Below, one piece after another: positions 8,016 through 63,955 of a stretch of DNA of 64,000 nt. Source of the DNA: Holophagales bacterium (lineage in GTDB: Bacteria; Acidobacteriota; Thermoanaerobaculia; Multivoradales; Multivoraceae); the NCBI GenBank assembly GCA_009837885.1, contig VXSP01000045.1, positions 325,526 to 389,525 of the forward strand, in the 5' to 3' direction. The translations under genes were made by a program, and so were the position numbers. Numbering within the stretch: the stretch's first letter is position 1; each line of letters starts with the position of its first letter. The notes under the pieces were generated by a model, which was not told the DNA's origin, did no database searches, and saw only the letters and a program-made list of their open reading frames with translations.

Positions 8016-8025
8016 GGAGTTCCCG

Positions 8026-9282
8026 ATGGCTGAACGACTTCCCTGCGGCTGTTCGCGGCGCGACTTCCTGCACCGTGGCCTCCTTGGACTTGGCGTCGCC
8101 GCCGGTCTTCCGGCGGTTCTCGGACGTACGTCCGCGGCGCTCGCGCTCGAGGAACTGCGGTCCGGGATCTCGGACGCGTCGGGGCGCATCCTGGTCGTGG
8201 TCGAGCTCTCTGGCGGCAACGACGGGCTGAACACCGTCATCCCGTTCCGCAACGACGAGTACTACCGGGTGCGCCCGAACCTGGGCATCCGCCCGAAGCG
8301 GGCGATCGCCGTCACCGAGGAGGCCGGGTTCCACCCGTCGCTCGTCGGCATGGAGGGCCTCTACAAGGACGGGAACCTGGCGGTCGTCGAGGGCTGCGGC
8401 TACCCGAACCCGAGTCTGTCCCACTTCTCGTCGATGGGCTTCTGGCACACCGGCGTGCCGAACGGCGGCGAGGCGCTTGGCTGGCTGGGCCGTCTCGCGG
8501 ACGATCACGGCCCGGACGGCACGCCCAACTACATCGTCAACGTGGCCAGCTCGCAGTCCCTGGCGGTGCGCGCGGCCAGGCACTCGCCGCTGGTCTTCGA
8601 CGACCCGGGCCGCCTCCGGCGCCAGGGCACGCCGGGCGAGAAACAGGCGCTCGGCCAGTTCGGCACGGACGAGGCGAGCGGCAACGACGCCCTCGACTTC
8701 CTGCGCGGCACGGCCGCCAACGCCGCTTCCAGTGCGGCGCTCGTGCGCGACGCGTGGTCCGGCTACCGCACGCCAGTCGACTACGGCATCGGCGGCCTCG
8801 GCGCCGACCTGCGCAAGGTCGCGGCCTTGATCGAGGCCGAACTGCCCACGCGCATCTACTACGTCAGCTTCCGCGGCAACTCGTTCGACACCCACGTCCA
8901 CCAGGCCGACACCCACGCCCGGCTGCTGATGTACATGTCCGACGCGGTCGCCGGCTTCCTGCGCGACGTCGACCGGATCGGCCGCGCCGACGATGTGGCG
9001 GTGCTGATGTTCACCGAGTTCGGCCGGCGGGTGGAGGAGAACGCGAGCCTCGGCACTGATCACGGCACCGCGGGCCCGATGTTCGTCGCCGGCAAAGGCG
9101 TCGCCGGCGGCTTCTACGGCGACACGCCGAGCCTCACCGACCTCGACGACGGCAACCTGAAGATGACGACCGACTTCCGGCGCGTCTACGCGTCGATGAT
9201 CGAGGGCTGGATGGGAATGGACGACGCCTCCGCGGTCCTCAAGGGCGAGTTCCCGGCGCTGCCGGTGTTCGGCGCGACGTAG
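8026..9282 (+). CDS. DUF1501 family protein (TAT-secreted, sulfatase-like fold)
   Basis: Twin-arginine motif SRRDFLHRGLLGLG. DUF1501 motifs follow (VVVELSGGNDGLNTVIP). It lies immediately downstream of DUF1800, the usual pair. Confidence 0.75.
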   Translation: MAERLPCGCSRRDFLHRGLLGLGVAAGLPAVLGRTSAALALEELRSGISDASGRILVVVELSGGNDGLNTVIPFRNDEYYRVRPNLGIRPKRAIAVTEEAGFHPSLVGMEGLYKDGNLAVVEGCGYPNPSLSHFSSMGFWHTGVPNGGEALGWLGRLADDHGPDGTPNYIVNVASSQSLAVRAARHSPLVFDDPGRLRRQGTPGEKQALGQFGTDEASGNDALDFLRGTAANAASSAALVRDAWSGYRTPVDYGIGGLGADLRKVAALIEAELPTRIYYVSFRGNSFDTHVHQADTHARLLMYMSDAVAGFLRDVDRIGRADDVAVLMFTEFGRRVEENASLGTDHGTAGPMFVAGKGVAGGFYGDTPSLTDLDDGNLKMTTDFRRVYASMIEGWMGMDDASAVLKGEFPALPVFGAT

Positions 9283-13229: not shown

Positions 13230-15218
13230 GACTTCGGTTCCTCTAAGGCTGCAGGCAGGGCAAGCGCGACGAGTTCGGGGGGCGTGCCGCCGCCGCCGAT
13301 GCCGAAGCGGCCGCCGCCGGTGGCGACGGCCAGGTACTGCCGGCCGTCGTGTTCGTAGATGATGGGGTTCGAGTTCGGGGTGCCCGGTAACTCGATTCCA
13401 CCGAGGTACTCGCCGGTCTTCTTGTCGTAGACGCTGATCTCCGGCGGCACGTCGGGTTCGTCGGCCTCGGGATCGGCGGTGCGTTCCGGGGCGGCCGTGA
13501 CGAAGAGCAGGGTGGGCGTGACCAGGGGAGCCGCGGTGTGATTGGCGACCCCGAGCCGTCCGAGTTCGAGGTCGGCGATGGCTGGATGGTTCACCGGACC
13601 GACGCCGTGCGGGACCATCCACAGGTGCTCGCCGGTGTTCAGATCGATCGCCGTGATTCGCCCGTATGGTGGCTTGACCAGGGGCAATCCACGGGGTCCC
13701 TCGACGGTCCGGTACCAACGATCCGGCACGAAGTTCAGGTCGGAGCGGTTCGGATCGGGCCTGGTCAGGGAGACGCTGGCCGAACGGGTGTGGGAGACGA
13801 CGTAGAGGATTCCGGTTTCGGGATCGACCGCGGCGCCGGTCCAGTTCGCGCCGCCGCCGTCGGCCGGCAACTGGATCGTCGGCTTTCCCGCCTCCTCGAA
13901 GCGCGGCGGCGTATAGAGCGGCACCAGGTCGTAGTCGGCTGCGATCTCGATCGCCTCGGCGCGGAGTTCGGGAGTCCAGTCGATCAGGTCGTCTTCGGTG
14001 ATGCCCTGGCGATCGAAGGCGGCCGGCCGGGTGGGGAAGGGCTGGGTTGGCGCGGCACGCTCGCCCGGCACGTCGCTTGGCGGCACCTCGCGTTCCTCGA
14101 TCTCCCACACCGGCTTGCCGGTCACACGGTCGAAGACGAAGGCGAAGGCCTGCTTGGTGACCTGGACCACGCCGCGCACCCGCTCGCCCTCCACCGTCGC
14201 CTCGAACAGGTTGGGGGCGGTCGGCGGGTCGTAGTCCCAGAGGCCGTGGTGGACGAACTGGTAGTGCCACTGGCGCTGGCCCGTTTCGCAGTCGACCGCG
14301 ACGATGCTCTCGGCGTAGAGGTTGTCACCGAGCCGGTGGCCGCCGTAGAGATCGTTGGTCGGCGTGCCGACCGGCAGATAGGCGGTGCCGGTCTCCTCGT
14401 CGACCGCGATCATGGACCAGACGTTCGTGTTACCGCTGTAGCGCCACGACTCGTCCTCCCAGGTTTCGACGCCGAGTTCGTCGTTCTGCGGGATGGTGTG
14501 GAAGACCCAGGCGAGATCGCCGGTCGGGATGTCATAGGCGCGCACGAACCCGGGCGGCGCTTCCTTGTGGGTGGCGAAGTCCGCCACGATCGAGCCAACG
14601 ATCACGGTGTTGCCGCAGACTGCCGGCGGCGAACTGTGCGTCGTCAGGCGCTCCATCACCTCGCGACCCAGGTGCGGCGTCATCTCGACCGCGCCGCCGT
14701 TGCCGAAGTCCGGATCAGGCTCTCCGGTTGCGGCGTCCAGGGAGATCAGCCGCCGGTCGTGGGTGGGGATCAGCACCCGCTCCTGCTGGCCGTCCGTCCA
14801 CCAGGCGACTCCGCGGTGGTGGAAGCCGAGGTTGGCCGGCCGGCCGGCGCGCCAGCTTTCCGGGTCGTAGGCCCAGAGCGTCTCGCCCGTCCCGGCGTCG
14901 ATCGCGGCGACCTGGCTGAGCGAGGTAGCGACGAAGATCCGGCCGCCGACCTCGAGCGGAATCGCCTTGAACTGGCCTCGTCGCACGCTGCTCGGGACTT
15001 CGGTGTCCGCGGCGATCGAGCGCCAGCGCCAGACGACCTCCACGTCCTGGAAGTTGGAGCGGTCGATCTCGTCGAGCGTCGAGTACTTGCTGTTGCCGGG
15101 ATCGCCACCGAAAGCCGGCCAGTCGCCGGAGGTTCCGGCCTGGGCCGTGAGCGGCGAACTCGCGAGTGAGCTGGCGAGCGCCGCGAGAGCGACGGCGAGG
15201 CTGGAATGGGTACTCAGG
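13226..15218 (-). CDS. PQQ-dependent dehydrogenase (second quinoprotein, no heme domain)
   Basis: The conserved mature N-terminus GDWPAFGGDPGNSKYSTLDEI and propeller repeats are present. There is no ATG/GTG/TTG between the upstream stop and this conserved N-terminus. The only candidate start is CTG at 15217, overlapping the upstream TGA (CTGA). ATGA overlap with the downstream ADH. Confidence 0.75.
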
Positions 15219-15687
15219 ACAGCAGCCCGATCAGGCGGGCGTAGACCGAAACGCTGGTCCAGATGCCGATCGAGAGAAAGCCGACCACCTTGGGCCAGTG
15301 TCCGAGCGTTCCTTCCTCGGCGAAGGCGACCCGGCGGCGGATCGTGAAGTTGAAGAGCAGCCCGATGACGATGATCTGAATCTTCCACCAGAAGAACGGG
15401 CTGTAGTACTGCTTGAGCGCCGTGGACAGGACCTGGGGCGCGCCGGTCACGAACAGGGCGACGAAGCTCCAGATCATCCACCGGTCCATCTCTCGGGCGA
15501 GCTGGTTGAGAGGCGTCTTGATCAGGCCGCGTCCAAGCAGGCGCATGTCGACGACCAGGACGGCGCCGGCGAAGCCGACCAGCGCCACCAGGTGAGCGCA
15601 CTGGATGATCGGCGACGCCCAGGTCTCCTCCAGCATCCAGGCGCTGAAGGGCAGGCCCTGCATCCACTCGAAGAAGGACTGCAACAT
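15214..15687 (-). CDS. 4-TM membrane protein, paralogue B (unknown function)
   Basis: Hydrophobic 157-aa ORF, paralogous to the upstream 174-aa ORF. Shared pattern: FEW..LP.S....E.......P.I...H.....FAG....DMRL.G. One His is conserved in TM1. Confidence 0.55.
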   Translation of the reverse strand: MLQSFFEWMQGLPFSAWMLEETWASPIIQCAHLVALVGFAGAVLVVDMRLLGRGLIKTPLNQLAREMDRWMIWSFVALFVTGAPQVLSTALKQYYSPFFWWKIQIIVIGLLFNFTIRRRVAFAEEGTLGHWPKVVGFLSIGIWTSVSVYARLIGLLS

Positions 15688-15711
15688 GTGGACGTTTCCT
15701 CCGCGGCCTCT

Positions 15712-16236
15712 TCAGGCGCCGATGTTCAGGTTGTTCCACCAGCCGGGCATCAGGCCGCTGTAGGCCATCATCCGTCCGGTGACCACGACCGCCGCCCACA
15801 ACACGAGGGACACGACCCCGGCGAGTCGGGCGTTCAGCGGAATCTCGCGGCCCTGGTCCCACGCCTGGACCGACTTGTAGGTCGCGTAGTGGAACCAGAA
15901 CATGTTGATGCCGGCGACAAGCATCAGCGCCATCTTGGCCCAGAAGTAGAAGTTGCCGTAGTACCGCATCGGCTGGCTGTAAAGCAGCAATGCCCCGGTG
16001 ATCAGGTTGATGCCGTAGCCGGTCAGCGCCCACGGGAAGAGGCGGGTCGGGATGTTCGATACCGGCACCTTCTTGAGCGTGAACCCGATCAGGCGCATGT
16101 CCCAGTACGCGATCAACCCGGCGAACAGGCACATGCTGACGACGTGGATCGTCAGCATGGTCGGGTAGGCGTTCAGCGACTCCCGCAGCGCGATGCTGCT
16201 GGGAAGCGCATCGACCCACTCGAAGAGGCTACGCAT
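15712..16236 (-). CDS. 4-TM membrane protein, paralogue A (unknown function)
   Basis: 174-aa hydrophobic ORF in the same operon and orientation. Paralogue of 15214..15687. Confidence 0.55.
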   Translation of the reverse strand: MRSLFEWVDALPSSIALRESLNAYPTMLTIHVVSMCLFAGLIAYWDMRLIGFTLKKVPVSNIPTRLFPWALTGYGINLITGALLLYSQPMRYYGNFYFWAKMALMLVAGINMFWFHYATYKSVQAWDQGREIPLNARLAGVVSLVLWAAVVVTGRMMAYSGLMPGWWNNLNIGA

Positions 16237-16292
16237 GAGCTATGTAGGGGAGGGTTCAGCGGCTCCCGGCCTGCGCCGGGGCGAATGCGGGC

Positions 16293-16826
16293 TCAGTCGT
16301 CGCAGCGGTCCTGGTACTTGCGGTAGACGAAGTGGCAGTCCTCGCAGGCGCCGGCAAGCTCGTTGGTGAGGTCGCTGACCTTGTCGCGGTCCTTCTCGTG
16401 GGCGGCGGTGTAGATCTTCTTGGCGACCTCGGTGAGCTTGCGCGCATACTCCTGATAGTCGTCTTTCTGGACCGGCGCCGGCTTGCCGTTCTCGCACATC
16501 CGGTCCGGGTTCAGGATCTGCGGTTCGACCTCGGCCAGGGCAAGCGCCGCCTGCTGGGGAACCTGCCAACCCGTGTAGATACTGGCGAAGCGGGCCGAAG
16601 CGGAACCGTCGCCGCTGTCGGACGCTTCGGGCGGCGCCTCCGGATCGTAGGACTGGACATCGAACAGGTGGTTCGAGTTCGGGAACAGGATGGCGCGCAT
16701 CAGTTCGGCCAGGTTGCCTACCGGCTCCTCGTGCTCGGAGGCTGCGACGGACGGCGCCACAATCGCCATACACGCTGCGAGGGCCACCGCGGCGGTGAGA
16801 ATCGGCGCGAGTCTGGTCAGGCGCAT
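16293..16826 (-). CDS. Class-II-like c-type cytochrome (C-terminal CxxCH), periplasmic
   Basis: ATG at 16826 has a GGAAGGAGAA SD. Signal peptide MRLTRLAPILTAAVALAA. The single CEDCH motif sits near the C-terminus, typical of cytochrome c'/c556 four-helix-bundle cytochromes. Confidence 0.6.
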   Translation of the reverse strand: MRLTRLAPILTAAVALAACMAIVAPSVAASEHEEPVGNLAELMRAILFPNSNHLFDVQSYDPEAPPEASDSGDGSASARFASIYTGWQVPQQAALALAEVEPQILNPDRMCENGKPAPVQKDDYQEYARKLTEVAKKIYTAAHEKDRDKVSDLTNELAGACEDCHFVYRKYQDRCDD

Positions 16827-16965
16827 TGTGCGGTTCTCCTTCCCCCGGAACAAGGGGATTGACGTTGGTTTCGGTTGGCTGGCGGAATCGCGAGCCGGGA
16901 GTGTAACTCAGAAACGGAGGCCTTCACGGGGGAAGCGGGTGCCGCCCGCGACGGCCTGGAGCTGC

Positions 16966-48021: not shown

Positions 48022-48816
48022 CTACTCCGGAAGGGTGAACGTGAGATCGAGCGTCGCGGCGAGCCCGTCGAGCAGCGTCACGCCGGACCGCATCGTGCCG
48101 AGACGTTCGTGCCACGCCTCGATCGTGTAGGTGCCGGCCGGGAGCCCGGGAATCTCGAACGAGCCGTCCGGCCCGGAGACGGCGAAGTAGGGGTGGCTGA
48201 AGACCCCGACATAGCTCGACATCCACGGGTGGACGTCGCACTTGATCCGGAACGCCGGCTCCTCGTCGGTGAACGAGAACGTGGCCTGCTTGATGGCCGC
48301 CGGCATGGCCCGGTTGAAGGGGCGGTTGACCTCGGACAGCGAGTGGACGTTGTGGAGCAACTCGTCCGAGTTCAGCACCTTGAGCTCCTGGCCCACCATG
48401 ATGCCTGCGACGCGGGGCGTGTAGCGGCAGCCCTGCTGGTCGATCACGGGCGGTTCCGCCGGCGGGTAGGGCCCCTGTGGAACGTTGTCGGCGACGTAGA
48501 CGAGGACGTTGGCCAGGCCGGCCTGATCGTCGACCGCGAGGATCTCCGGATAGACCGGCTCCGTGTGCTTGGCGGCGCAGGCGGGATCGGCATGCATGTT
48601 GAGCGGCCGGAGTTCCGGCACCTCGCCGTCGAAGCGAACGACGCCGGCGATCGAACTGTTGCCGAGGGGTTCGGTGGGTGTGGCTTCGGGGGCTGAGGGA
48701 GTGTCGCCGCCGGAGTGCTCCGGGGCATCGCCGGCGCAGCCGGCCAGGAGGAAGGCGAAGGGAAGAAGGGCCGTGGAGAGGGCCAGCGGAAGCGTAGTTC
48801 TCGATGCGCAGATCAT
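48022..48816 (-). CDS. Cupredoxin (amicyanin-like type-1 copper) lipoprotein, paralogue 1
   Basis: Lipobox LLAGC. T1-Cu ligand pattern LHNVHS ... CDVHPWM (H, C-x2-H-x2-M). Paralogue of 52397..53113, with an extra C-terminal beta-sandwich tail (DGSFEIPGLPAGTYTIEA). Confidence 0.55.
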   Translation of the reverse strand: MICASRTTLPLALSTALLPFAFLLAGCAGDAPEHSGGDTPSAPEATPTEPLGNSSIAGVVRFDGEVPELRPLNMHADPACAAKHTEPVYPEILAVDDQAGLANVLVYVADNVPQGPYPPAEPPVIDQQGCRYTPRVAGIMVGQELKVLNSDELLHNVHSLSEVNRPFNRAMPAAIKQATFSFTDEEPAFRIKCDVHPWMSSYVGVFSHPYFAVSGPDGSFEIPGLPAGTYTIEAWHERLGTMRSGVTLLDGLAATLDLTFTLPE

Positions 48817-48971
48817 GCGCCTATTCTAATGGGCCGCAGGACGGTTGCACCGGGGTTCTTCTCGCCGTACGGCCCGTTTCCTTGACCGCGATAGGGGCGG
48901 GTGTTAGCTTCCGCGCGATTCGTGGCCCGGCCGGCCCTTGAGGGCACAGCCGCCCTATCTCCAGGCCCTCG

Positions 48972-50432
48972 ATGGCACAGAGTCAGGACAACACTCAGGA
49001 ACCCGTCGCCGGGCGTGCGCCGCTGATCGTCGGCGGTTACGACTTCCGTTCCCTGACGGAAGCGGTCGCGGTGCCGGTCGAGCGCAAGACGCCGATCGGC
49101 TGGTGGTTCTTCTTCCTGCCGTCGCTGGCGATGCTGGGCCTGTTCGGCGTTTCGATCGGCTGGCTGTTCTGGGAGGGCACCGGCATCTGGGGCCTGAACA
49201 ACCCGGTCAACTGGGGCTTCGCGATCGTCAACTTCGTCTTCTGGGTCGGCATCGGCCATGCCGGCACGTTGATCTCCGCGATCCTCTTCCTGTTTCGGCA
49301 GAAGTGGCGCACGTCGATCAACCGCGCGGCGGAGGCGATGACGATCTTCGCGGTCATGTGCGCCCTGGTCTTCCCGGGAATCCACGTCGGCCGCGTGTGG
49401 GTCGCCTACTGGATGTTCCCGCTGCCGAATCAGATGGACATGTGGCCGAACTTCCGCAGCCCGCTGATCTGGGACGTGTTTGCGGTGTCGATCTACGGCA
49501 CGGTGTCCCTGATGTTCTGGTACGTGGGCCTGATCCCGGATCTCGCGACGATCCGCGACCGCGCCAAGACGCGGATCAAGCAGATCGCCTACGGCATCTT
49601 CGCTCTCGGCTGGCGCGGTTCGCACCGGAACTGGCTCCACTACGAGCGGGCCTACCTGATGCTGGCCGGTCTGGCGACGCCGCTGGTTCTCTCCGTCCAC
49701 TCGGTCGTGTCGATGGACTTCGCCACCGCCCAGTTGCCGGGCTGGCACACGACGATCTTCCCGCCGTACTTCGTCGCCGGGGCGATCTTCTCAGGCTTCG
49801 CCATGGTCATGACCCTGATGCTGATCTGCCGGGTCCTGTTCAAGATGGAGGACATCATCACGATGCGCCACCTCGAGAACATGGCCAAGATCATGCTGCT
49901 GACGGGGTGCATGGTCGGTTACGCCTACGGCATCGAGATGTTCATCGCCTGGTACAGCGGCAACCCGTACGAGCAGTTCGCCTTCGCCAACCGGGCCCTC
50001 GGGCCCTACGCCTGGGCCTACTGGATCATGGTGAGCTGCAACGTGCTCACGCCGCAGTTGTTCTGGTTCAAGAAGATGCGCAACCACATCGGCTGGCTGT
50101 TCATCTCCTCGATCCTGATCAACATCGGCATGTGGTTCGAGCGTTTCGTCATCGTCACCTCGTCGCTGCACCGCGACTTCCTGCCCGCGAACTGGGACTA
50201 CTACCAGGCGACCTTCTGGGACTTCGCTTCGCTGATCGGCAGCTTCGGCCTGTTCTTCACGATGTTCTGCCTGTTCGCCCGGTTCCTGCCGCTGGTGGCG
50301 ACGGCGGAGGTCAAGACCGTGCTGCCGGAGGCCGACCCGCACCAGGGCGAGGAACTGGTGCGCGTGGTGCCAGCCGGCTCCGGAGTGGAACCCGCGCCGC
50401 AGGCGGCGCCGGCCGGCGGGGGAGGGTCCTGA
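48972..50432 (+). CDS. actC: NrfD/PsrC-family polytopic membrane protein, alternative complex III ActC-like
   Basis: 486 aa, about 10 TM, NrfD-like profile. Followed by DUF3341 and a second NrfD-like gene, as in act operons. Confidence 0.6.
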
Positions 50433-50433
50433 C

Positions 50434-51042
50434 ATGGGCCTGATGACCCTGGACGTGCCGGAAGCGTCGGCGGGTTACAGCCACTACGGTGTGCTGGCCC
50501 GCTTCGAAACCGCGAAGGCGCTCTACCGGGCCTGTGAGGCGGTCCGGGACGCCGGCTACTCGAAGTGGGACGCGCTGACGCCGTTTCCGGTTCATGGTCT
50601 CGAGAAGGCGATGGGGCTGAAGCCGTCCAGGCTGCCGTTCCTCGTGCTGGCCACGGGACTTTCCGGCGCCGGGCTCGGCTTCGCCCTGCAGAGCTGGGTC
50701 CACATCAAGGGCTACCCGCTGATCATCAGCGGCAAGCCGCTGTTCACCTGGCCCGCCTTCGTGCCGGTCACCTTCGAGCTCGGAGTGCTCGGCGCTGCGC
50801 TGGGGGCGGTGCTCGGCATGTTCGCCTTCAACAAGTTGCCCACCTACCACCATCCGCTCTTCCGGTCGAAGAACTTCGCGCGCGTGACGGACGACGGTCT
50901 GTTCATCGCCATCGAGGCCTGGGATCCGAAGTACGACGACCAGGACACCGCGGAGTTCCTGAGCAGGCTCGGCGCGGTCGAGGTGGAGCACGTGCCGATC
51001 GACGATCCCGCGGACGACGGTGACGGGGGAGGCGCCGCCTGA
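50434..51042 (+). CDS. actD: DUF3341 membrane protein, ACIII ActD-like
   Basis: 202 aa. Soluble N-terminal part followed by 2 TM. Position between the two NrfD-like genes. Confidence 0.55.
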   Translation: MGLMTLDVPEASAGYSHYGVLARFETAKALYRACEAVRDAGYSKWDALTPFPVHGLEKAMGLKPSRLPFLVLATGLSGAGLGFALQSWVHIKGYPLIISGKPLFTWPAFVPVTFELGVLGAALGAVLGMFAFNKLPTYHHPLFRSKNFARVTDDGLFIAIEAWDPKYDDQDTAEFLSRLGAVEVEHVPIDDPADDGDGGGAA

Positions 51043-52277
51043 TGGCCCACGGACCGCGCATCGTTCATCTCGATCAATTGGTCATCCGGCCGGGCAGCGG
51101 CTGGGCGCGCCTGCCTTTGATCGCGGGCGCGGTCGGCGTCGTCTTCACGGTCGTGTCGATCGTGCTGGCGATGGGGTCAAAAGAGAGCACCAAGCAGTTC
51201 TTCCACTCCTGGCTCGTCGCCGTCGTCTTCTTCCTCTGCATCGGTCTCGGCTGCCTGTTCTTCGTGCTGATTCACCACGCGACGAAGGCCGGCTGGGGCG
51301 TCGTGGTGCGCCGTCTGGCCGAGAACCTGGCCTGCACGGTGCCTGTGCTGGCCGTCCTGTTCATTCCGGTCGTGGCCCTGGGCATGTACGACCTGTTCCA
51401 CTGGACCCACGCCGACGCCGTGGCGCACGACCGGTTGCTGCAGGTCAAGGAACCGTGGCTCAACGAGACCGGCTTCTGGATTCGGACCGTCATCTACTTC
51501 GTGATCTGGAGTGGGCTGGCCCTCTACTTCCGGAACGCGTCGCGGCGCCAGGATGACAGCGGAGACGAGGCCCTTTCCCACCGGATGGCGCGATTCAGCC
51601 CCGTCGCGGTCGCCATGTTTGCCGTGACGCTGACGTTCGCCGGTTTCGACTGGCTGATGTCGCTGGAGCCGCACTGGTACTCGACGATGTTCGGCGTCTA
51701 CTTCTTCGCCGGTACGGTCGTCTCGGCGTTCGCGGCGCTTACGGTCCTCACCCTGGCCTTCGAACGGTCGGGCCACTTCCGGGGCGTGATCACCGGCGAG
51801 CACTTCCACGATCTCGGCAAGCTGCTGTTCGCCTTCACGGTCTTCTGGGCCTACATCGCCTTCAGCCAGTTCTTCCTCATCTGGTACGCGAACATCCCGG
51901 AGGAGACGAACTGGTTCCTGAGCCGGCTGCACGGCACGGCCGACAATCCGGCGAACTGGCGCCCGGCGACCCTGCTTCTGGCCATCGGCCACTTCGCCGT
52001 CCCGTTCTTCTTCCTCATGCCCCGGACGATCAAGCGCAACCGCACCCTGCTGCTGATCGGCGCCCTCTGGATGCTGGCCATGCACCTCTGGGACGTGTTC
52101 TGGCTGGTCATGCCGAACCTGCACCGGGAGATGACGTTCTCCCTGCTCGACCTGACCTCGCTGCTCGGCGTGGGCGGCGTGTTCCTGGCAACCGCGGGCT
52201 GGCTGCTGGGCCGCGGCTCGCTGGTGCCGTCCCGCGATCCGCGGCTGGTCGAGTCGCTGGCCTTCGAGAACATCTGA
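51042..52277 (+). CDS. actF: NrfD-like membrane protein, ACIII ActF-like (quinone-binding subunit 2)
   Basis: 411 aa polytopic. TGATG overlap with actD. No cytochrome c (ActE) gene lies between. Confidence 0.55.
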   Translation: MAHGPRIVHLDQLVIRPGSGWARLPLIAGAVGVVFTVVSIVLAMGSKESTKQFFHSWLVAVVFFLCIGLGCLFFVLIHHATKAGWGVVVRRLAENLACTVPVLAVLFIPVVALGMYDLFHWTHADAVAHDRLLQVKEPWLNETGFWIRTVIYFVIWSGLALYFRNASRRQDDSGDEALSHRMARFSPVAVAMFAVTLTFAGFDWLMSLEPHWYSTMFGVYFFAGTVVSAFAALTVLTLAFERSGHFRGVITGEHFHDLGKLLFAFTVFWAYIAFSQFFLIWYANIPEETNWFLSRLHGTADNPANWRPATLLLAIGHFAVPFFFLMPRTIKRNRTLLLIGALWMLAMHLWDVFWLVMPNLHREMTFSLLDLTSLLGVGGVFLATAGWLLGRGSLVPSRDPRLVESLAFENI

Positions 52278-52396
52278 GACGTTCAGGGGCCCTCCCAGTC
52301 CGTCAGCCGTTCGCCTTGTTCAGTCCGCCGGTCCTTGCTACGCTGCGCACCGTCTCAGGACCTCTTGCAACACCTCTCCCGTCAAGGAGCATCGAC

Positions 52397-53113
52397 ATGA
52401 TTCCGAAGCAGACGATTCGCGTCTGTGCCGTTCTTCTCGCCTTCGCCCTGGCTTCCTCCTCGGTTGCGCTCGGCGGCACGATTGTCGGCAAAGTCACGTA
52501 CGAAGGCCGGACGCCCCCGCAACGCCCGATGAGGATGGACGCGGACCCCAAGTGCGCCGAGAAGCACAGTGGCACGGTCCTCGACCAGACCTTCATGATC
52601 GGGGATGGCGGCGCCTTCGCCAACGTCTTCCTGGTGATTACCGAGGGCCTGGACGGGAAGTCGTTCGACACGCCTTCGCAGCCGGTGGTCATGGACCAGA
52701 ACGGCTGCATCTACACGCCACGCGTCATGGGCATCCAGGTCGGGCAGCAGTTCAAGGTGAAGAACTCGGACGGCCTGCTGCACAACGTCCACTCCCTGTC
52801 CAAGGACAACCCCCCGTTCAACCGGGCGATGCCGGCCAGCGTGACGGAGGCCGACTACAGCTTCGACAAGACGGAGCGCTTCCGCATCAAGTGCGACGTC
52901 CACCCCTGGATGACGTCCTGGGTGACGGTCGTCGATCATCCGTTCTACGCGGTTTCGGGCGCCGACGGCAGTTTCCGCATCGAGAATGTTCCGGCCGGCA
53001 CCTACACGATCGAGGCCCGGCATGAGTTCGAGAGGTTCAGGATCTACTCGGAGACCGTCGAGGTCGGCGACAGTGGCGAAGCGACGGTGAACTTCGTCTT
53101 CAAGCCGGAGTAG
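52397..53113 (+). CDS. Cupredoxin (amicyanin-like type-1 copper) protein, paralogue 2, secreted
   Basis: ATG at 52397 with AAGGAG SD. Signal peptide. LHNVHS ... CDVHPWM ligand set. Same architecture as 48022..48816. Confidence 0.55.
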   Translation: MIPKQTIRVCAVLLAFALASSSVALGGTIVGKVTYEGRTPPQRPMRMDADPKCAEKHSGTVLDQTFMIGDGGAFANVFLVITEGLDGKSFDTPSQPVVMDQNGCIYTPRVMGIQVGQQFKVKNSDGLLHNVHSLSKDNPPFNRAMPASVTEADYSFDKTERFRIKCDVHPWMTSWVTVVDHPFYAVSGADGSFRIENVPAGTYTIEARHEFERFRIYSETVEVGDSGEATVNFVFKPE

Positions 53114-53154
53114 ACGAGGCAACCCCAGAAAGTAGCTAGAAAGGAGCGGCGTCC

Positions 53155-54912
53155 ATGGCGGAGCCCGTTCACGCTTCACCTGCACACGACGAGCATCACC
53201 ACGAGCAGAGCTTCTGGCGGAAGTACATCTTCTCGACCGATCACAAGGTGATCGGCGTCCAGTACTCGGTCACGGGTCTGGCGTTTCTCCTCTTCGGGTT
53301 CGTCCTGATGATGGTGATGCGCTGGAACCTCGCCTACCCGGGCGAGCCGATTCCCTTCATCGGCTCGCTCCTCGGCGAGAACCGGGCGCCCGGCGGCATC
53401 ATGCTGCCGGACTTCTACAACGAGCTCGGCGCCATGCACGGCACGATCATGGTGTTCCTGGGGGTCGTGCCGCTGGCGGTCGGCGGCTTCGGCAACTTCG
53501 TCATGCCGCTGCAGCTCGGCGCCCCGGACATGGCCTTCCCGCGGATCAACATGATCAGCTACTGGTGCCTGTTCCTGGGCGGCGTGACGATGTTCGCCAG
53601 CTTCTTCCTGCCGAACGGCGCCGCGGGCAACGGCTGGACCTCCTACTCGCCGCTGGCCGACATCGCGCTGAACGGCCAGACCGCCTGGCTGATCGGGATG
53701 ATCTTCCTGATCACGTCGTCCCTGCTGGGCGCGGTCAACTTCATCACCACGGCGATCCAGCTCCGGGCTCCGGGCATGACCTGGATGCGACTGCCCTTCT
53801 TCTGCTGGGCGCAGATCGTGACCGCCTTCCTCCTGCTGCTGGCCTTCCCGCCGCTCGAGGCCGCGGGCGTGCTGCAGTTGATGGACCGGGTCGCGAACAC
53901 CAGTTTCTTCATTCCGGAGGGCCTGGTGGTCGGTGGCGAAGTGGTCGACCGGAGCGGAGGCGGCAGCCCGCTGCTCTGGCAGCACCTGTTCTGGTTCCTG
54001 GCCCACCCGGAGGTCTACGTGCTCATCCTGCCGGCGATGGGGATCGTCGCCGAGGTGATCGCGAACAACTCCCGCAAGCCGCTCTGGGGTTACCGCTCGA
54101 TGGTCTACTCCCTGATCTTCCTCGGCTTCATGAGCTTCATCGTCTGGGCGCACCACATGTTCATCACCGGCATGGGCTCGGTGATGTCGACCTTCTTCCA
54201 GACGACGACGATGATCATCTCGATCCCGTCGGTCATCATCCTGAGCGCGCTCTTCATCTCGCTGTGGGGCGGTTCCATCCGCTACAACACGCCGATGCTG
54301 TTCGCGCTCGGCTTCCTGCCGATGTTCGGCATAGGAGGGCTGACCGGGCTGCCGCTCGGTCTCTCGGCGGCGGACATCCCGCTCCACGACACCTACTACG
54401 TGATCGGGCACTTCCACTACGTGGTGGCGCCCGGAACCCTGTTCGCGCTGTTCGCCGGCGTCTACTACTGGTTCCCCAAGGTGACGGGGCGCAAGATGAA
54501 CGAGTTCCTGGGCAAGCTCCACTTCTGGCCCTCGCTCGTCTTCATGAACGGGGTTTTCTTCCCGATGATGATCCAGGGCCTGAACGGCGTATCGCGCCGG
54601 CTCGCCGACGGCGGCATCACTTACGACTTCGCGGGCGAGGTCGCCGGGCTGAACCGGATGATGTCGGTTTCGGCCTGGTGCCTGGCGGTGGCGCAGATTC
54701 CGTTCATCATCAACTTCTTCATGAGCATCCGGAACGGCGAGAAGGCCGGACGCAACCCCTGGAACTCGACCACCGTCGAGTGGCTGGCGCCGTCGCCGGC
54801 TCCGCACGGCAACTTCGATCAGCCGATCGAGGTTGTGCGCGGGCCGTACGAGTACAGCGTCCCGGGTAGCGACAAGGACTACGTCCCACAGGCCGAACCG
54901 GCCTCAACCTGA
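53155..54912 (+). CDS. coxA: Cytochrome c oxidase subunit I (heme-copper oxidase, A-type)
   Basis: AAAGGAG SD. Canonical CuB/heme ligands are readable (WAHHMF, GHFHYV). 12+ TM, 585 aa. Confidence 0.95.
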   Translation: MAEPVHASPAHDEHHHEQSFWRKYIFSTDHKVIGVQYSVTGLAFLLFGFVLMMVMRWNLAYPGEPIPFIGSLLGENRAPGGIMLPDFYNELGAMHGTIMVFLGVVPLAVGGFGNFVMPLQLGAPDMAFPRINMISYWCLFLGGVTMFASFFLPNGAAGNGWTSYSPLADIALNGQTAWLIGMIFLITSSLLGAVNFITTAIQLRAPGMTWMRLPFFCWAQIVTAFLLLLAFPPLEAAGVLQLMDRVANTSFFIPEGLVVGGEVVDRSGGGSPLLWQHLFWFLAHPEVYVLILPAMGIVAEVIANNSRKPLWGYRSMVYSLIFLGFMSFIVWAHHMFITGMGSVMSTFFQTTTMIISIPSVIILSALFISLWGGSIRYNTPMLFALGFLPMFGIGGLTGLPLGLSAADIPLHDTYYVIGHFHYVVAPGTLFALFAGVYYWFPKVTGRKMNEFLGKLHFWPSLVFMNGVFFPMMIQGLNGVSRRLADGGITYDFAGEVAGLNRMMSVSAWCLAVAQIPFIINFFMSIRNGEKAGRNPWNSTTVEWLAPSPAPHGNFDQPIEVVRGPYEYSVPGSDKDYVPQAEPAST

Positions 54913-54932
54913 CCGTTCGAGGACCTCAAGAG

Positions 54933-55532
54933 ATGGAAATCCCCTACACGGTAGAGGCCCACCCCGAAACCGGCCTCAACAACGGGAAGATCGGGATCTG
55001 GCTGTTCCTGACCTCGGAGGTCATGCTGTTCGGGGCGTTGTTCGCCACGTTCATCATGCTGCGCCTGGGATCGGACGGCAACTGGGCCGCGATGCAGGCG
55101 GAAGCGGAGCTCAACATTCCGCTGGCGACGCTCAACACGGCCGTGCTGATCGCCTCCAGTCTGACGATGGTCATGGCCTGGGCGTCGCTGATGCGCGGGC
55201 AACTGGGCCGGTTCAAGCTGTTCGGCTGGCTGACCGTCGCCTGCGGCGGCGTCTTCTTGGTCATCAAGTACTTCGAGTACACGGCGAAGTTCGAGCACCA
55301 CCACTACCCGGAGTCGAGCACCTTCCTCGCCATCTACTTCGCGATGACGGGCCTCCACGCCCTGCACGTGATCGGCGGCATGGCCTGGAACGCCTACTTC
55401 ACCGGGCCGGGGTCGAAGCTTTTCCACACGAACCGGCAGTGGCTGACCGACCGGGTCGAGCACTCCGGTCTGTTCTGGCACTTCGTCGACCTGGTCTGGA
55501 TCTTCCTCTTCCCCGTCTTCTACCTGCTGTAG
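54933..55532 (+). CDS. coxC: Cytochrome c oxidase subunit III (short 5-TM form)
   Basis: 199 aa. Conserved subunit III motifs are present (IWLFLTSEVMLFG, WHFVDLVW). Confidence 0.85.
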   Translation: MEIPYTVEAHPETGLNNGKIGIWLFLTSEVMLFGALFATFIMLRLGSDGNWAAMQAEAELNIPLATLNTAVLIASSLTMVMAWASLMRGQLGRFKLFGWLTVACGGVFLVIKYFEYTAKFEHHHYPESSTFLAIYFAMTGLHALHVIGGMAWNAYFTGPGSKLFHTNRQWLTDRVEHSGLFWHFVDLVWIFLFPVFYLL

Positions 55533-55584
55533 CGGACATCTGCCGCCCTGAATCCCTGGTCTACCCTGGAGCGAGTCGCATTCC

Positions 55585-55914
55585 ATGAGTGAACACGTCG
55601 ATATCGACAAGCAGGTCCGCGTCTACTTCCTGGTTTTCGGCGCCCTGATGGTGGGTACGCTCGTCACGGTTCTTGCGGCGGAACTCGATGTTTCGGTGCC
55701 GGTGGCCCTCACCATCGGCCTGTTCATCGCCACCGCCAAGGCGTCGCTGGTCGCCTGCTTCTTCATGCACCTGATCGACGAGAAGAAGATCATCTACTGG
55801 ACGCTGGCCCTGACCGTCGCGTTCTTCATCGCCCTGATGGCGTTGCCGCTCCTGACCTCGGTAGCGGACCAGGTAGGGGAGTTCGCCGAAGTCGAGGCGC
55901 ACGAGCCGCACTGA
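55585..55914 (+). CDS. Cytochrome c oxidase subunit IV (prokaryotic CoxD/CtaF-like)
   Basis: 109 aa, 3 TM, in the typical position after subunit III. Confidence 0.6.
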   Translation: MSEHVDIDKQVRVYFLVFGALMVGTLVTVLAAELDVSVPVALTIGLFIATAKASLVACFFMHLIDEKKIIYWTLALTVAFFIALMALPLLTSVADQVGEFAEVEAHEPH

Positions 55915-55933
55915 CGATCCCGCTGAACGCGTC

Positions 55934-56407
55934 ATGAACCTGAAGGTCATTCACATCGTCTTCGTCGGCAGCGCCATTCTCCTGGCGCTGTTCTTCGGCG
56001 GCTGGTGTCTGGCGCAGGGGAGCGCGTTCGCGGTGGGCGCCGTTCTTTCCTTCGCGGTCGCGGCTGCGCTCGTCTGGTACGGCATCTGGTTCTGGCGCAA
56101 GATCACGACGCCCGAAGAGGAGTGGGCTCGCCGGCGCAAGCTGTTCCGCACGATTCCCGTTGCCGTGGTCGTCTGGCTCTTCGCCTCCGAGCCGGCGGCC
56201 TGGGCCTGCTCGGTCTGCTACGGGGCCGCTGAAGGGTCGATGATCGACGCGGCCCGGGCCGGGGTGTGGTTCCTGCTGGCGGCCGTGTTCGTGATGCAGG
56301 GGGCCTTCGTTCTCTTCTTTCTCTATCTCCGGCGCCGTGCCCGGCGTCTGCGAACCGACCCGGTGCCGCCCTGGTGGAGCACCGTTGAGGAGCCTGTCAA
56401 GTCATGA
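55934..56407 (+). CDS. Hypothetical 4-TM membrane protein with a CSVCYG motif, embedded in the oxidase operon
   Basis: 157 aa hydrophobic ORF. The CxxC sits at a TM boundary. ATGA overlap with the coxB start. Confidence 0.45.
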   Translation: MNLKVIHIVFVGSAILLALFFGGWCLAQGSAFAVGAVLSFAVAAALVWYGIWFWRKITTPEEEWARRRKLFRTIPVAVVVWLFASEPAAWACSVCYGAAEGSMIDAARAGVWFLLAAVFVMQGAFVLFFLYLRRRARRLRTDPVPPWWSTVEEPVKS

Positions 56408-57207
56408 TGGATGCCATGTTCCCGGCCGCGGCGTCGGAGCACGCCGGCCGGATCGACAACATGATCGACGCGGTGCACTACCTGATGCTCGCGCTCTTCA
56501 TCGTCTGGGGCGTGTTCTTCGTGTACGTGCTGATGCGCTTCCGCGCCAGCCGCAACCCGAAGGCGGACTACGTCGGCGTCAAGAGCAAGATGAGCACTTA
56601 TGGTGAAGTCGCCGTGGCGATCGCGGAAGGGATTCTCCTGCTCGGCTTCTCGATTCCCATGTGGGCGGAACGGGTGGACGAAGTGCCGCCGGAGTCCGAG
56701 GCGACGGTCGTGCGGGTCGTGGCGCAGCAGTTCGCGTGGAACGTCTGGTATCCGGGGGCCGACGGCGAGTTCGGCGCGCAGGACCTGTCACTGATAGACG
56801 AGGCGACCAATCCGATCGGCCTCGACCGCGACAGCGAGGCCGGCGCCGACGACATCTGGACGGTGAACCAGTTGCACCTCCCGGTCGACAAGGCGGCGAT
56901 CATCCACCTGACGTCCAAGGACGTGATCCACAGCTTCAACCTGCCGAACATGCGGATCAAGCAGGACACGATCCCGGGCATTTCGATTCCGGTCTGGTTC
57001 GTTCCCACCAAGACCACCGCCCAGATCCGCGAAGAGACCGGAAACCCGGACTACGTCTACGAGATCGCCTGCGCCCAACTCTGCGGCAACAGCCACTACT
57101 CGATGCGCGGCTTCCTGACCGTGCACACCGAGGAGGAGTTCCAGGCCTGGCTCGACGAGGAGGCGTCCTACCTCACCGGCAGCGACGACGACTTCTTCGA
57201 CTTCTAG
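56404..57207 (+). CDS. coxB: Cytochrome c oxidase subunit II (CuA), without a fused cytochrome c domain
   Basis: 2 N-terminal TM helices. CuA ligands are present (HSF...CAQLCGNSHYSM). The protein ends soon after CuA, so this is an aa3-type rather than caa3-type subunit. Confidence 0.9.
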   Translation: MMDAMFPAAASEHAGRIDNMIDAVHYLMLALFIVWGVFFVYVLMRFRASRNPKADYVGVKSKMSTYGEVAVAIAEGILLLGFSIPMWAERVDEVPPESEATVVRVVAQQFAWNVWYPGADGEFGAQDLSLIDEATNPIGLDRDSEAGADDIWTVNQLHLPVDKAAIIHLTSKDVIHSFNLPNMRIKQDTIPGISIPVWFVPTKTTAQIREETGNPDYVYEIACAQLCGNSHYSMRGFLTVHTEEEFQAWLDEEASYLTGSDDDFFDF

Positions 57208-62201: not shown

Positions 62202-63260
62202 GTGCTGCTCCTGAGCCAGAGACCCTTGCGAGACAGAGATGGCGATCGGGCGCTCTTCACGGGTCGAGAGCCTGAGCTCGATCGCCTACTGCGAGCGTCC
62301 CGAGTTGGATTCAACGCCATCGTCTTGGGTGATCGAGGTGCAGGTACTAGCTCGTTGCTGGCTCGACACGCTTCCCACCTCGAAGGCCGGGGCGGTCGAG
62401 TGTGCCTCGTGACGGGAACCGCGGTCGACTCGATGCGTGGGCTCGCGGAAGCGATCCGACTCGCTGCCGAGGGAAGGCGGACTGTCGGCCGCGTTCCACC
62501 GGCTCAGGAACGGGGAGAGGACGAGCAGTCGGTACTCGGCAGGTTGATCCACGGTGACCCGCAGTCCTTGGGCCGGCTGCGTGACGTGTGCTTCGAGTTG
62601 GAGGAGTCCAACAACAGTGGGCGGCTGACCGTCATTCTCGACAATGTGCTGCGGCCAGAGATGGTCCACGGGCTCTTCGGCCGGTGCCGGGACGAAGTCT
62701 GGGAGTTACCAACGCGATGGGTGATTGCGGGGCGAGCAGATCGGCGCAGCCAGTATCTGAAGCCGCCGGCCGACTCCTTCTTCGACACTGAGGTGTACGT
62801 CGGAGCTCTTGAACCGGGAGTAGCGCGAGAACTGGTCCTTGCGCGCCTGAAGTCAGCCTTGCCCGAAGAGCGTGTCGACGCGGAACGAATCCGGCGCCGG
62901 CTTGACCAGATCGTGGAGCGCGGCGCGGGGAATCCCCGGCGGCTCTTGTCAGCGGCCAGGGACGTGCTCCTTAGTACCCAGGAGGAAGCGGAGAGCGGCG
63001 ACTCTGCCCTCGCCGCCGCTGCGTCGCTAGGCAAGACGGAGTTTGCTGCACTGCACTACTTGATGGACAGGGGCCCCGCGAGCGCGTCTGACTCGGAGTT
63101 CCAGGCAGACCTTGGAGTGACCCGTTCGCGTGCCACCCAGGTCCTGAAACGACTCGAAGACTCGAATCTCGTCACGGTCTTCGAGACGCGAACCGGCCGC
63201 GGCAGGCCGCGGAAGCTCTATCGTTCGATCGGCAGCGCGAGTGCGGAGGATCCTGCATGA
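62202..63260 (+). CDS. NTPase-like domain protein with degenerate P-loop and C-terminal winged-helix DNA-binding domain
   Basis: LFTGREPELDRLL...IVLGDRGAGTSSLL: Walker-A-like but lacking the Lys. C-terminal wHTH (LGVTRSRATQVLKRLEDSNLVTVFETRTGRGRPRKLY). The segment has lower GC than the rest of the window. Confidence 0.5.
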   Translation: MLLLSQRPLRDRDGDRALFTGREPELDRLLRASRVGFNAIVLGDRGAGTSSLLARHASHLEGRGGRVCLVTGTAVDSMRGLAEAIRLAAEGRRTVGRVPPAQERGEDEQSVLGRLIHGDPQSLGRLRDVCFELEESNNSGRLTVILDNVLRPEMVHGLFGRCRDEVWELPTRWVIAGRADRRSQYLKPPADSFFDTEVYVGALEPGVARELVLARLKSALPEERVDAERIRRRLDQIVERGAGNPRRLLSAARDVLLSTQEEAESGDSALAAAASLGKTEFAALHYLMDRGPASASDSEFQADLGVTRSRATQVLKRLEDSNLVTVFETRTGRGRPRKLYRSIGSASAEDPA

Positions 63261-63955
63261 GTCGCCACCTCCTCGTGTGGCTGCTCCAGACCCACGCCTT
63301 CGACGATGCTTCGCCACGCCACGACACCCGAGGCTACGAGCTGCCTACGGTACTCGGCGACCAGACTCTTCGGTACGTCCACGGCGGCATGGCTCCTCGT
63401 ACGCTGCCATGGCCGGGGCTGGAAGGAGTCGCTCCCGGCCAGAAGGGGCCAGCCGACTTTGGCCTGTCCTCGGCTTGGCCGCCGCAGCGACCGCTGCGTG
63501 CCGAGCGTCGACCAGTGACGACGACGCGGGAGGAGGTGATGGCGAACGTCTATGCGGCGTTCGGTTGGCGTGGAAGTCGCGAAGAGGGCGACGAACGGGT
63601 CGTTGTCCTGTCTGTGCGGACGCCGCCGGGCCTTCGGGACGTCCGGATCGACCACGGATTCGTGGAGCATGTGGCCAGGCACGCGAATCGCGGTGCCTTC
63701 GCGAACTACGTTTTGCCAACCCTGAAGGAACCCCATGAGGTCTGGTTGACGCACGTAGGTTCCAGTAGGGGTGGGGCCTTTCGGCATCACTTTCTTGCGG
63801 CTTTCGATGATGGAGTGACCGCGGTTGTCGTCGTGGAGCCCGGCGAGGCGCCGGTTGCTTGGAACTTCTTCCCCGTAAGGCGCCGGACGGATGTCCGGAA
63901 ACGGCGAAAGGGCATGCTCCTCTACTCTCGGCGCCAAGAAGGCGGGGAGGGCTGA
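63257..63955 (+). CDS. Hypothetical protein, translationally coupled to the NTPase-like/wHTH gene
   Basis: ATGA start/stop overlap. 232-aa ORF in the same lower-GC segment. No domain recognised. Confidence 0.45.
   Translation: MSRHLLVWLLQTHAFDDASPRHDTRGYELPTVLGDQTLRYVHGGMAPRTLPWPGLEGVAPGQKGPADFGLSSAWPPQRPLRAERRPVTTTREEVMANVYAAFGWRGSREEGDERVVVLSVRTPPGLRDVRIDHGFVEHVARHANRGAFANYVLPTLKEPHEVWLTHVGSSRGGAFRHHFLAAFDDGVTAVVVVEPGEAPVAWNFFPVRRRTDVRKRRKGMLLYSRRQEGGEG

Follow-up and report, generated by a model that had tools for sequence, protein, structure and literature searches.

In a stretch of 64,000 nucleotides from a Holophagales bacterium (contig VXSP01000045.1; hereafter the window) we have analyzed a locus at positions 48022–57207 in which genes for cupredoxin-like copper proteins lie with those for the membrane subunits ActC, ActD and ActF of an alternative complex III (ACIII) and for a haem-copper oxidase. 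The locus is one respiratory operon accompanied by a divergent paralogue; cupA is on the reverse strand, followed by actC-actD-actF-cupB-coxA-coxC-coxD-x4TM-coxB, all on the forward strand. Comparison with other genomes shows that the constant unit is the cupredoxin together with the oxidase, and that the complex-III-type module lying upstream is the variable element. The interpretation that we favour, and hold with about even confidence, is that the cupredoxin is the dedicated electron-entry partner of the oxidase, and that ActC, ActD and ActF work with ActA and ActB encoded elsewhere.

How constant is this arrangement? A profile of the cupredoxin was used to fetch 79 genome loci, and the counts given here refer to those with enough flanking sequence. 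The cupredoxin gene (cup) is followed by coxA-C-D-(x4TM)-coxB in 55 of the 66 loci with sufficient sequence downstream, and actC-actD-actF is found immediately before it in 30 of 68 with sufficient sequence upstream. An initial annotation of the window, made from its sequence, had proposed comparing the gene order in related genomes, and the order clearly recurs. It is present in at least 30 species-representative genomes, which is far beyond chance. By the titles of their records the loci in which ActCDF precedes the cupredoxin belong to Thermoanaerobaculia, Vicinamibacteria, other Acidobacteriota, one metagenome-assembled genome (MAG) each of Verrucomicrobiia, Binatia and a 'delta proteobacterium', and unclassified MAGs. 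The record labels for the oxidase subfamily are Acidobacteriota, Verrucomicrobiota, Binatia, Latescibacterota, Gemmatimonas, Planctomycetales, Omnitrophota, Marinimicrobia and Calditrichia. The nearest relatives judged by CupB (96–99%) are Acidobacteriota MAGs, one labelled Thermoanaerobaculia, one Holophagales and two Acidobacteria or Acidobacteriota; the CupB of 'Candidatus Multivorans' (Thermoanaerobaculia) is 72–78% identical. The same run of genes, from coxA to the right edge of the window, is carried by a 568-kb sponge-metagenome scaffold (ENGE20-1_SAMN12347678).

The module upstream of the cupredoxin takes more than one form. In a Latescibacterota locus (L059, 4046–9914) it comprises a Rieske protein, a split cytochrome b and an octahaem cytochrome c, all confirmed by Pfam. 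A similar open reading frame (ORF) of ~770–1,010 amino acids (aa) with seven or eight CxxCH motifs is found upstream of cup in L062, L028, L015, L026 and L076, and the ORFs that precede it in L062, L028, L026 and L076 have look-alike N-termini. The multihaem module immediately precedes cup in L059, L062 and L028; in L015, L026 and L076 it lies farther upstream, by one to three ORFs. The labels of these Rieske or multihaem loci are Latescibacterota, Gemmatimonas, Planctomycetales, Omnitrophota and Marinimicrobia. Some Vicinamibacteria have the cupredoxin and oxidase genes without either complex-III-type module in cis. Since the cupredoxin and oxidase are constant and ActCDF is variable, the cupredoxin is best read as the electron-entry partner of the oxidase, and CupB is probably either stably bound to the oxidase or dedicated to it. 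The initial annotation had viewed the locus as a haem-c-poor, copper-mediated route from quinol to oxygen, or else as a split ACIII. The anatomy on which that view was based is as described, but what is kept together is the cupredoxin and the oxidase, not ActCDF and the cupredoxin.

Over 209 residues the two copper proteins, CupA and CupB, share 51% identity (E 3e-74); they are predicted to be type-1 copper electron carriers of a new and widespread family. CupA has the LLAGC lipobox of a putative lipoprotein, then a long linker rich in Pro, Thr and Ala, the copper site LHNVH ... CDVHPWM and a C-terminal CarboxypepD_reg-like sandwich. CupB begins with a plain, apparently cleavable signal peptide indicating secretion, followed by an N-terminal β strand, a DPxCxxKH segment, the cupredoxin core, in which LHNVH and CDVHPWM supply the type-1 ligands (His, Cys, His and Met), and again a C-terminal CarboxypepD_reg-like sandwich. 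Thus two paralogous type-1 copper proteins with the ligand set HNVH ... C-x2-H-x2-M, one a lipoprotein and one secreted, are encoded here just as the initial annotation had it. An AlphaFold model (pLDDT 90) contains a core of ~100 residues that Foldseek matches with probability 1.0 to amicyanin, plastocyanin, pseudoazurin and CuA domains; the flanking of this core by the N-terminal strand and C-terminal β-sandwich is a feature absent from the earlier description. The start of cupB was taken as the ATG at 52397, which follows AAGGAG and gives a protein of 238 aa, where close homologues have 238–242 aa; an upstream TTG was dropped in its favour.

The copper site is strongly conserved. LHNVH and C-D-V-H-P-W-M are invariant in 24 diverse homologues, as are a Cys pair, a K-H dipeptide and HP and HE motifs, and among 63 homologues from the genome loci the copper ligands and both extra cysteines are at least 97% conserved. 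The initial annotation had considered that the proteins might lack copper ligands, jointly with a canonical set of actA, actB and actE elsewhere; the first part of this is excluded by the invariance of the ligands. The description 'amicyanin-like' holds for the copper site and the cupredoxin fold, both of which are shared with amicyanin (TIGR02657), including HNVH and C-x2-H-x2-M. The copper loop of amicyanin is CTPHPFM, and that of the Cup proteins CDVHPWM. The description does not extend further. The score against the amicyanin equivalog TIGR02657 is 17.1 bits with a cutoff of 110.2, the Cup proteins have ~130 extra residues in extra domains, and no mau (methylamine dehydrogenase) genes are found in the window. 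Profile scores for CupA are below threshold both for CarboxypepD_reg in Pfam (1.7e-6) and for amicyanin TIGR02657 in NCBIfam (0.005).

Beyond the type-1 site the residues C54, K57, H58, C105, H133, H182, H210 and E211 (in the translation of 52394–53113) and an FNRAMP loop are invariant. So many invariant residues would be unusual for a simple shuttle, and hint that the protein has a fixed surface for docking or binds a second metal. The CxxKH sequence of the N-terminal segment was considered as a haem-binding site and rejected, as it is not a known attachment motif; a disulfide between the invariant Cys54 and Cys105 is a simpler and likely pairing. The family is large: it forms at least 1,457 clusters at 90% identity, and in species-representative genomes at least 589 stretches were confirmed. 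With clustering at 50% identity, most of the best 150 clusters match as a single unit over their full length, with ~240–290 aa; giant repeat proteins inflate the count of 3,273 obtained at E ≤ 1e-30. Some homologues of 540–600 aa are two tandem cupredoxin units, and others are fused to far larger proteins (P0246, P0264, P0269, P0270 and P0338). The divergent cupA copy is found in 10 of 30 ActCDF loci, all of them close relatives.

Could these proteins, instead of carrying electrons, act as copper chaperones or help to assemble CuA or CuB? Chaperones with a cupredoxin fold do exist, the CupA of Streptococcus pneumoniae is among the Foldseek matches, and both the extra invariant Cys, His and Lys residues and the presence in the operon of a CxxC membrane protein resembling a copper-handling factor would suit such a role. 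Yet the His/Cys/His/Met ligands with the short C-x2-H-x2-M loop are those of the electron-transfer site of amicyanin, conserved at the level given above, the best structural matches are electron carriers, and in several phyla the gene stands between a complex-III-type module and the oxidase. We therefore judge a chaperone function to be very unlikely.

From their sequences, ActC, ActD and ActF are bona fide ACIII subunits that would form a complete membrane arm. ActC matches the Pfam family NrfD (7.8e-26) and, in the PDB, ActC of Rhodothermus marinus (6f0k_C; 6.7e-202), to which it is 67% identical over the trimmed alignment. ActD matches PF11821 (1.5e-63), 6lod_D (9.1e-52) and 6f0k_D (8.7e-46), and its membrane glutamate in TFELGV aligns with that of Roseiflexus ActD. 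ActF gives no match in Pfam but is clearly recognized by 6f0k_F (9.4e-88), and an FWAYIAF motif carries the equivalent of R. marinus Tyr284; ActF has no quinol site in the known complexes. The initial annotation had called the module 'ACIII-like'. Its NrfD and DUF3341 membrane subunits are indeed present, but the qualifier is too cautious, as the structural matches and the quinol pocket are those of genuine ACIII; the matches to 6f0k_C and 6f0k_F leave no place for the NrfD-like proteins in some other family.

Residues of the quinol pocket and of the proposed coupling path were taken from the structure of the R. marinus complex (PMC5928083) and a review of NrfD proteins (PMC8076601). All 12 mapped positions of ActC are identical to those of R. 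marinus: W81, I85, F88, P135, H138, S163, L165, D168, S241, H243, V246 and D249 correspond to W82, I86, F89, P136, H139, S164, L166, D169, S245, H247, V250 and D253. The same 12 are unchanged in all 34 cupredoxin-linked ActC sequences. The retention of pocket and coupling residues shows that ActC, ActD and ActF are not a decayed remnant. ActC is 69–77% identical between phyla, and is among the best-conserved proteins of the operon. In a tree the cupredoxin-linked ActC sequences form a monophyletic clade that is sister to ActC of R. marinus and Flavobacterium johnsoniae. The periplasmic loops are the best-conserved class of segment, at 0.87 within the clade and 0.69 against canonical ActC (0.65 for the transmembrane (TM) segments and 0.58 for the cytoplasmic loops); in the solved complex this periplasmic face is the side that binds ActB. 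A divergent form is found in an Acidobacteriota MAG (L029:7653–9640), where an ActC-like protein (50% identical) whose quinol pocket is degenerate, with changes at 8 of the 12 mapped positions, is encoded with ActD directly before the cupredoxin and oxidase genes, with no ActF.

The act genes are very closely packed. Direct reading of the sequence shows a single base between the TGA of actC and the ATG of actD, and the TGA of actD overlaps the ATG of actF. An actE gene could not fit within junctions as tight as these, and there is no gene for a CxxCH or iron-sulfur (Fe-S) protein in the operon, so that only the membrane subunits are present, as had been claimed. Further downstream x4TM and coxB overlap in ATGA, and the remaining intergenic gaps are 19–119 bp.

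It might be argued that ActCDF plays an accessory role, as a scaffold, a proton-translocating module or a spare arm, and that the cupredoxin and oxidase are fed by a separate ACIII, a bc complex or periplasmic dehydrogenases. This would explain why ActCDF is missing from cupredoxin–oxidase operons in closely related Vicinamibacteria and other Acidobacteriota, a pyrroloquinoline quinone (PQQ) dehydrogenase with a fused cytochrome c domain is encoded in the window, and supercomplexes of ACIII with an oxidase are known in R. marinus and F. johnsoniae (PMC5928083). However, it is hard to see why the 12 pocket and coupling residues should be invariant without turnover of quinol, or why ActC should be so well conserved between phyla, and the translational coupling with the genes downstream points to stoichiometric co-production. 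An accessory role thus seems to us decidedly improbable.

The oxidase is assigned to a distinct clade of the A family, despite the absence of the lysine of the K-channel. CoxA (PF00115, 2.7e-134) has HPEVY, with the D-channel glutamate and the cross-linked tyrosine, HHMF and HFHY, all of which align with Paracoccus denitrificans 1ar1_A; the six histidine ligands of subunit I are in place. The K-channel lysine (K354 in P. denitrificans) is Ile362 here, and is replaced by I, V or L in 63 of 63 cupredoxin-linked CoxA sequences; the K-pathway would therefore have to use other residues. Among five unrelated oxidases in the fetched loci the lysine is kept in two that are A2-like (L025 and L050) and absent from L040, L052 and L065. 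Evolutionary surveys have already drawn attention to A-family oxidases whose K-channel is altered (PMC8239418). All cupredoxin-linked CoxA sequences share a 12-residue periplasmic insertion (~254–267 in the window CoxA, before GGGxPxLWQH), and in a neighbour-joining tree they form one clade on a long stem. CoxC (PF00510, 9.2e-20, with CtaE/CyoC-like matches in NCBIfam) and CoxD (PF03626, 8.3e-11; TIGR02229 caa3_sub_IV at 48 bits, above the cutoff of 37) are readily identified.

CoxB matches TIGR02866 at 1e-34, which is below the cutoff for that family. Its CuA site is DVIHSF ... CAQLCGNSHYSM, with the ligand pattern H...C-x3-C-x3-H-x2-M, and the ligands H176, C223, C227, H231 and M234 align with those of 1ar1_B; an enzyme with this site is not classed as a quinol oxidase. 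The glutamate that bridges CuA and the Mg(Mn) site (Glu218) is replaced by glutamine, giving CAQLCG (residues 223–228) in 56 of 56 cupredoxin-linked CoxB sequences. This glutamine and the insertion in CoxA are both periplasmic, and might mark the place where a bound cupredoxin could dock. CoxB has no cytochrome c domain and no CxxCH, and its C-terminus lies 29 residues past the CuA methionine. An oxidase of aa3 rather than caa3 type had been proposed in the initial annotation; the absence of the fused domain is borne out, but 'aa3' specifies a haem type that cannot be read from sequence.

A further gene of the oxidase operon encodes a protein with four TM helices, x4TM, which carries a periplasm-facing C-x-x-C-[FY]-G motif. 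It had been noted as a CSVCYG protein inserted before coxB, and this is correct for the window; the motif is found in ~50 of 52 loci across phyla, and the gene is present in nearly all of the cupredoxin–oxidase loci, either before coxB or after coxD. No family in Pfam or NCBIfam matched x4TM. Its 69 homologues are unnamed, hypothetical or bear scattered and unrelated automatic labels; in none of them is a Pfam domain recognized. An identity as CtaM/DUF420 or another known assembly factor was discarded in the absence of a profile match. The protein might serve in the handling of copper, or be an additional subunit.

Where, then, are ActA and ActB? The operon encodes neither pentahaem ActA, nor ActB, the Tat-exported molybdopterin-like subunit that has three [4Fe-4S] clusters and one [3Fe-4S], nor monohaem ActE; ActA and ActB are also absent from the window, and a number of observations weigh against their supply from another locus. 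There is no ActA- or ActB-like protein among the large ORFs of the 64-kb window, there are no act genes in the 10 kb beyond its right end (on the 568-kb scaffold), and neither ActA nor ActB is found in the 10-kb flanks of 13 close relatives. None of the 31 ActCDF–cupredoxin–oxidase operons (L003 included) has an ORF with CxxCH or Fe-S motifs, or ActA, ActB or ActE, in cis. In favour of such a supply, an ActA–ActB pair lies divergently just upstream of actC in L003, L022, L032, L037 and L080, though in L003, L022 and L080 it is cut off by the edge of the locus. The ActB of L037 is followed by an ActC′ of its own, which shares 58% identity with ActC of the window; this is a separate canonical ACIII, making the cupredoxin-linked ActCDF of that locus a second copy. 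In a Binatia MAG (L032:3–5534, reverse strand) the place of ActC after ActB and ActA, which has five haems, is taken by a protein resembling subunit I of cytochrome bd. Since the neighbouring ActAB of L037 and L032 has its own membrane partner, adjacency is no proof of sharing. The version of the locus with Rieske protein and cytochrome b carries its whole quinol-oxidising complex in cis, and a monophyletic ActC clade in which ActA, ActB and ActE are never in cis is also what would be expected of a self-sufficient unit. A search of a set of 5.8 billion proteins with the N-terminal 573 aa of the ActB encoded beside the L003 operon gave a best match of 54% identity among the 120 matches listed, and did not recover the query's own protein.

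A self-sufficient unit of this kind would be a menaquinol oxidase made of ActCDF, the cupredoxin and CoxABCD, perhaps with x4TM, in which copper replaces the wire of Fe-S clusters and haems and there is no ActA or ActB. The cupredoxin would dock on ActC in the place of the [3Fe-4S] cluster of ActB, and pass single electrons from menaquinol to CuA. We consider this unlikely, although a good deal is consistent with it. The lack of ActA, ActB, ActE and any CxxCH or Fe-S ORF is uniform over 31 of 31 operons, and the monophyly of an ActC clade spread over several phyla fits the transfer of a working unit. The quinol pocket is strictly conserved, so that the chemistry of quinol would be retained; the ActA-ActB-ActC′ set next door in L037 makes the linked ActCDF an extra copy; and the two cupredoxin paralogues of the window lineage could be two one-electron acceptors. 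A unit with one single-electron acceptor, however, meets the problem of the semiquinone, and we know of no NrfD-like subunit that lacks an Fe-S partner. The periplasmic loops of ActC are not remodelled compared with canonical ActC, and a cupredoxin beside ActCDF is indistinguishable from one beside Rieske/cytochrome b or beside nothing; over 63 homologues no position separates the ActCDF-adjacent cupredoxins from the others. Moreover, in the families collected in PMC8076601 (Table 1) every NrfD-like subunit has an Fe-S partner.

The conserved pocket and periplasmic loops, the position of the linked ActC clade as sister to canonical ActC, and the lack of any residue that sets apart the ActCDF-linked cupredoxins, lead us to lean towards ActA and ActB acting in trans. 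That the cupredoxin–oxidase genes occur in several Vicinamibacteria with no quinol-oxidising module in cis implies that partners in trans are normal for the cupredoxin-linked oxidase, and the cytochrome bd-like neighbour in L032 suggests that an ActAB module can pair with different membrane partners. With ActA and ActB supplied from another locus, quinol would be oxidised in the menaquinol pocket of ActC, with ActD and ActF carrying residues proposed for proton coupling, and electrons would exit via the Fe-S clusters of ActB and the haem subunit ActA. The cupredoxin would take the place of ActE, or of the fused cytochrome c domain of ACIII–caa3 systems, and reduce CuA of CoxB, and CoxA would then reduce O2. 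The lipoprotein CupA could be a membrane-tethered second copy. We infer this direction of electron flow, the partnership of cupredoxin and CuA, the supply of ActA and ActB in trans and the formation of a supercomplex from what is observed directly, that is the gene content, the protein families, the conservation of catalytic residues and the synteny.

The closest counterparts are the ACIII–caa3/aa3 systems of R. marinus and F. johnsoniae (6F0K and 6BTM), where ActC, ActD and ActF are orthologous and the act genes are likewise placed directly before an A-family oxidase operon. In contrast to these, the operon here has no ActA, ActB, ActE or ActH, there is no cytochrome c domain on CoxB or ActA, and a cupredoxin gene is placed between actF and coxA. 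In addition the order of the oxidase genes is coxA-C-D-x-B and CoxA lacks the K-channel lysine. ActE is reported to be dispensable in F. johnsoniae (PMC8552683). A second parallel is the reduction by ACIII of the cupredoxin auracyanin, which PMC10873879 describes for Chloroflexus and Roseiflexus as a membrane-tethered type-1 copper acceptor; CupA likewise looks to be anchored to lipid or membrane. The auracyanin system has ActA, ActB and ActE, however, and auracyanin is an azurin-like single domain encoded outside oxidase operons. The nearest structural matches of the Cup proteins are amicyanin, plastocyanin and pseudoazurin; the likeness to auracyanin seen here is one of proposed role.

Cupredoxins encoded with an A-family oxidase are also found in Acidithiobacillus ferrooxidans (AcoP and rusticyanin with an aa3 oxidase). 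AcoP binds the aa3 oxidase and cytochrome c, sustains the activity of the oxidase and is encoded with it (PMC4059628). That system differs in being the iron-oxidation chain of an acidophile, which runs from an outer-membrane cytochrome and has no ACIII module, and AcoP is a single-domain green copper protein, whereas the Cup proteins have the classic His/Cys/His/Met site and a CarboxypepD_reg-like sandwich. The caa3 oxidases (e.g. Thermus thermophilus 2YEV) similarly have a dedicated one-electron entry module on an A-family oxidase, and it is their subunit IV that CoxD matches; the entry module here is a separate copper protein and not a fused haem c domain.

The features of the locus are collected in Table 1. 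Coding frames were chosen by third-position GC content (GC3), which is 0.86–0.95 in the frames of the locus where the GC content of the window is 63–71%; all of the genes named in the initial annotation are found in such frames, at the positions it gave.

Table 1. Coordinates in the window of the genes and divergent spacer that make up the locus.
Feature	Position	Strand	Description
cupA	48022..48816	-	predicted lipoprotein, cupredoxin paralogue, 264 aa; GC3 0.89
cupA-actC spacer	48817..48971		155-bp divergent intergenic region
actC	48972..50432	+	ACIII quinol-binding NrfD-like subunit, 486 aa, 10 predicted TM helices
actD	50434..51042	+	ACIII subunit D, 202 aa
actF	51042..52277	+	second NrfD-like ACIII membrane subunit, 411 aa
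cupB	52397..53113	+	cupredoxin, predicted to be secreted, 238 aa
coxA	53155..54912	+	A-family haem-copper oxidase subunit I, 585 aa
coxC	54933..55532	+	oxidase subunit III, 199 aa, short form
coxD	55585..55914	+	oxidase subunit IV, 109 aa
x4TM	55934..56407	+	uncharacterised 4-TM protein, 157 aa
coxB	56404..57207	+	oxidase subunit II, 267 aa

From its position the spacer between cupA and actC is presumed to be the promoter region of both transcription units; a scan of this region of 66% GC for sigma-70 promoter and terminator consensus sequences gave nothing informative. Upstream of cupA are unrelated genes, for an HAD hydrolase, an M23 peptidase, an FAD protein, an SDR protein, pyrC, pyrB and an SMC-like protein; the cupredoxin gene is divergent and no actAB genes adjoin it, as had been annotated. 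A GH109-like oxidoreductase is encoded downstream of coxB.

Forty translations from the window were scanned and none resembles ActA or ActB. The search for CxxCH covered ORFs of at least 80 codons; the motif occurs in only three in the whole window, at 11318, 16346 and 37064, all outside the locus. The PQQ-dependent dehydrogenase with the C-terminal cytochrome c domain has 1,062 aa and is encoded at 11082–14270 on the reverse strand; it is a possible periplasmic source of electrons in a high-potential chain. At 15214–16853, also on the reverse strand, a small uncharacterised cluster comprises two paralogous membrane proteins of the DUF6644 family and, after them, a cytochrome c′-like haem protein of 186 aa with the motif CEDCH. 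DUF1800/DUF1501 and PSCyt1/PSCyt2/PSD1 gene pairs, usually regarded as of planctomycete type, are present in this acidobacterial lineage (window 5757–9282; L084:12314–17370). A planctomycete origin of the window, to which such genes had pointed, was rejected in view of the nearest genomes, Acidobacteriota or Thermoanaerobaculia MAGs at 96–99%. Lastly, a protein with a PBECR2 domain (barnase/EndoU/colicin-like nuclease) is encoded at 63257–63955; a helix-turn-helix regulator adjoins it in relatives, and it may be part of a toxin–antitoxin system or a mobile element.

We find no description of ActCDF-only operons or of the cupredoxin–oxidase cassette in the searchable literature, though the survey of act clusters by Refojo et al. 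(2010) may hold an earlier mention; the cassette and the oxidase subfamily are apparently undescribed. The subfamily is marked by its cupredoxin partner, the absence of the K-channel lysine, the 12-residue insertion, the glutamine in place of the bridging glutamate and the CxxC membrane protein. Several of the groups that carry it are abundant in the microbiomes of soil, sediment, ocean and sponges. Since the databases name Cup homologues 'plastocyanin' or 'carboxypeptidase regulatory-like domain-containing protein', metabolic reconstructions probably misread this segment of the aerobic chain of these organisms.

In every ACIII that has been purified or solved the redox cofactors are on ActA, ActB and ActE. 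The operon described here, which is conserved across phyla, retains the other half, the cofactor-free half that binds quinol and translocates protons, and couples it genetically to a copper protein and an oxidase. Were the self-contained route true, this would be the first quinol site of the NrfD family to be served by a copper protein, carrying electrons from quinol to O2 without Fe-S clusters or haem c. If ActA and ActB come from elsewhere, ACIII would be a modular complex whose membrane arms can be exchanged, each serving a particular oxidase; if there is no ActA or ActB, this would be a new way of oxidising quinol.

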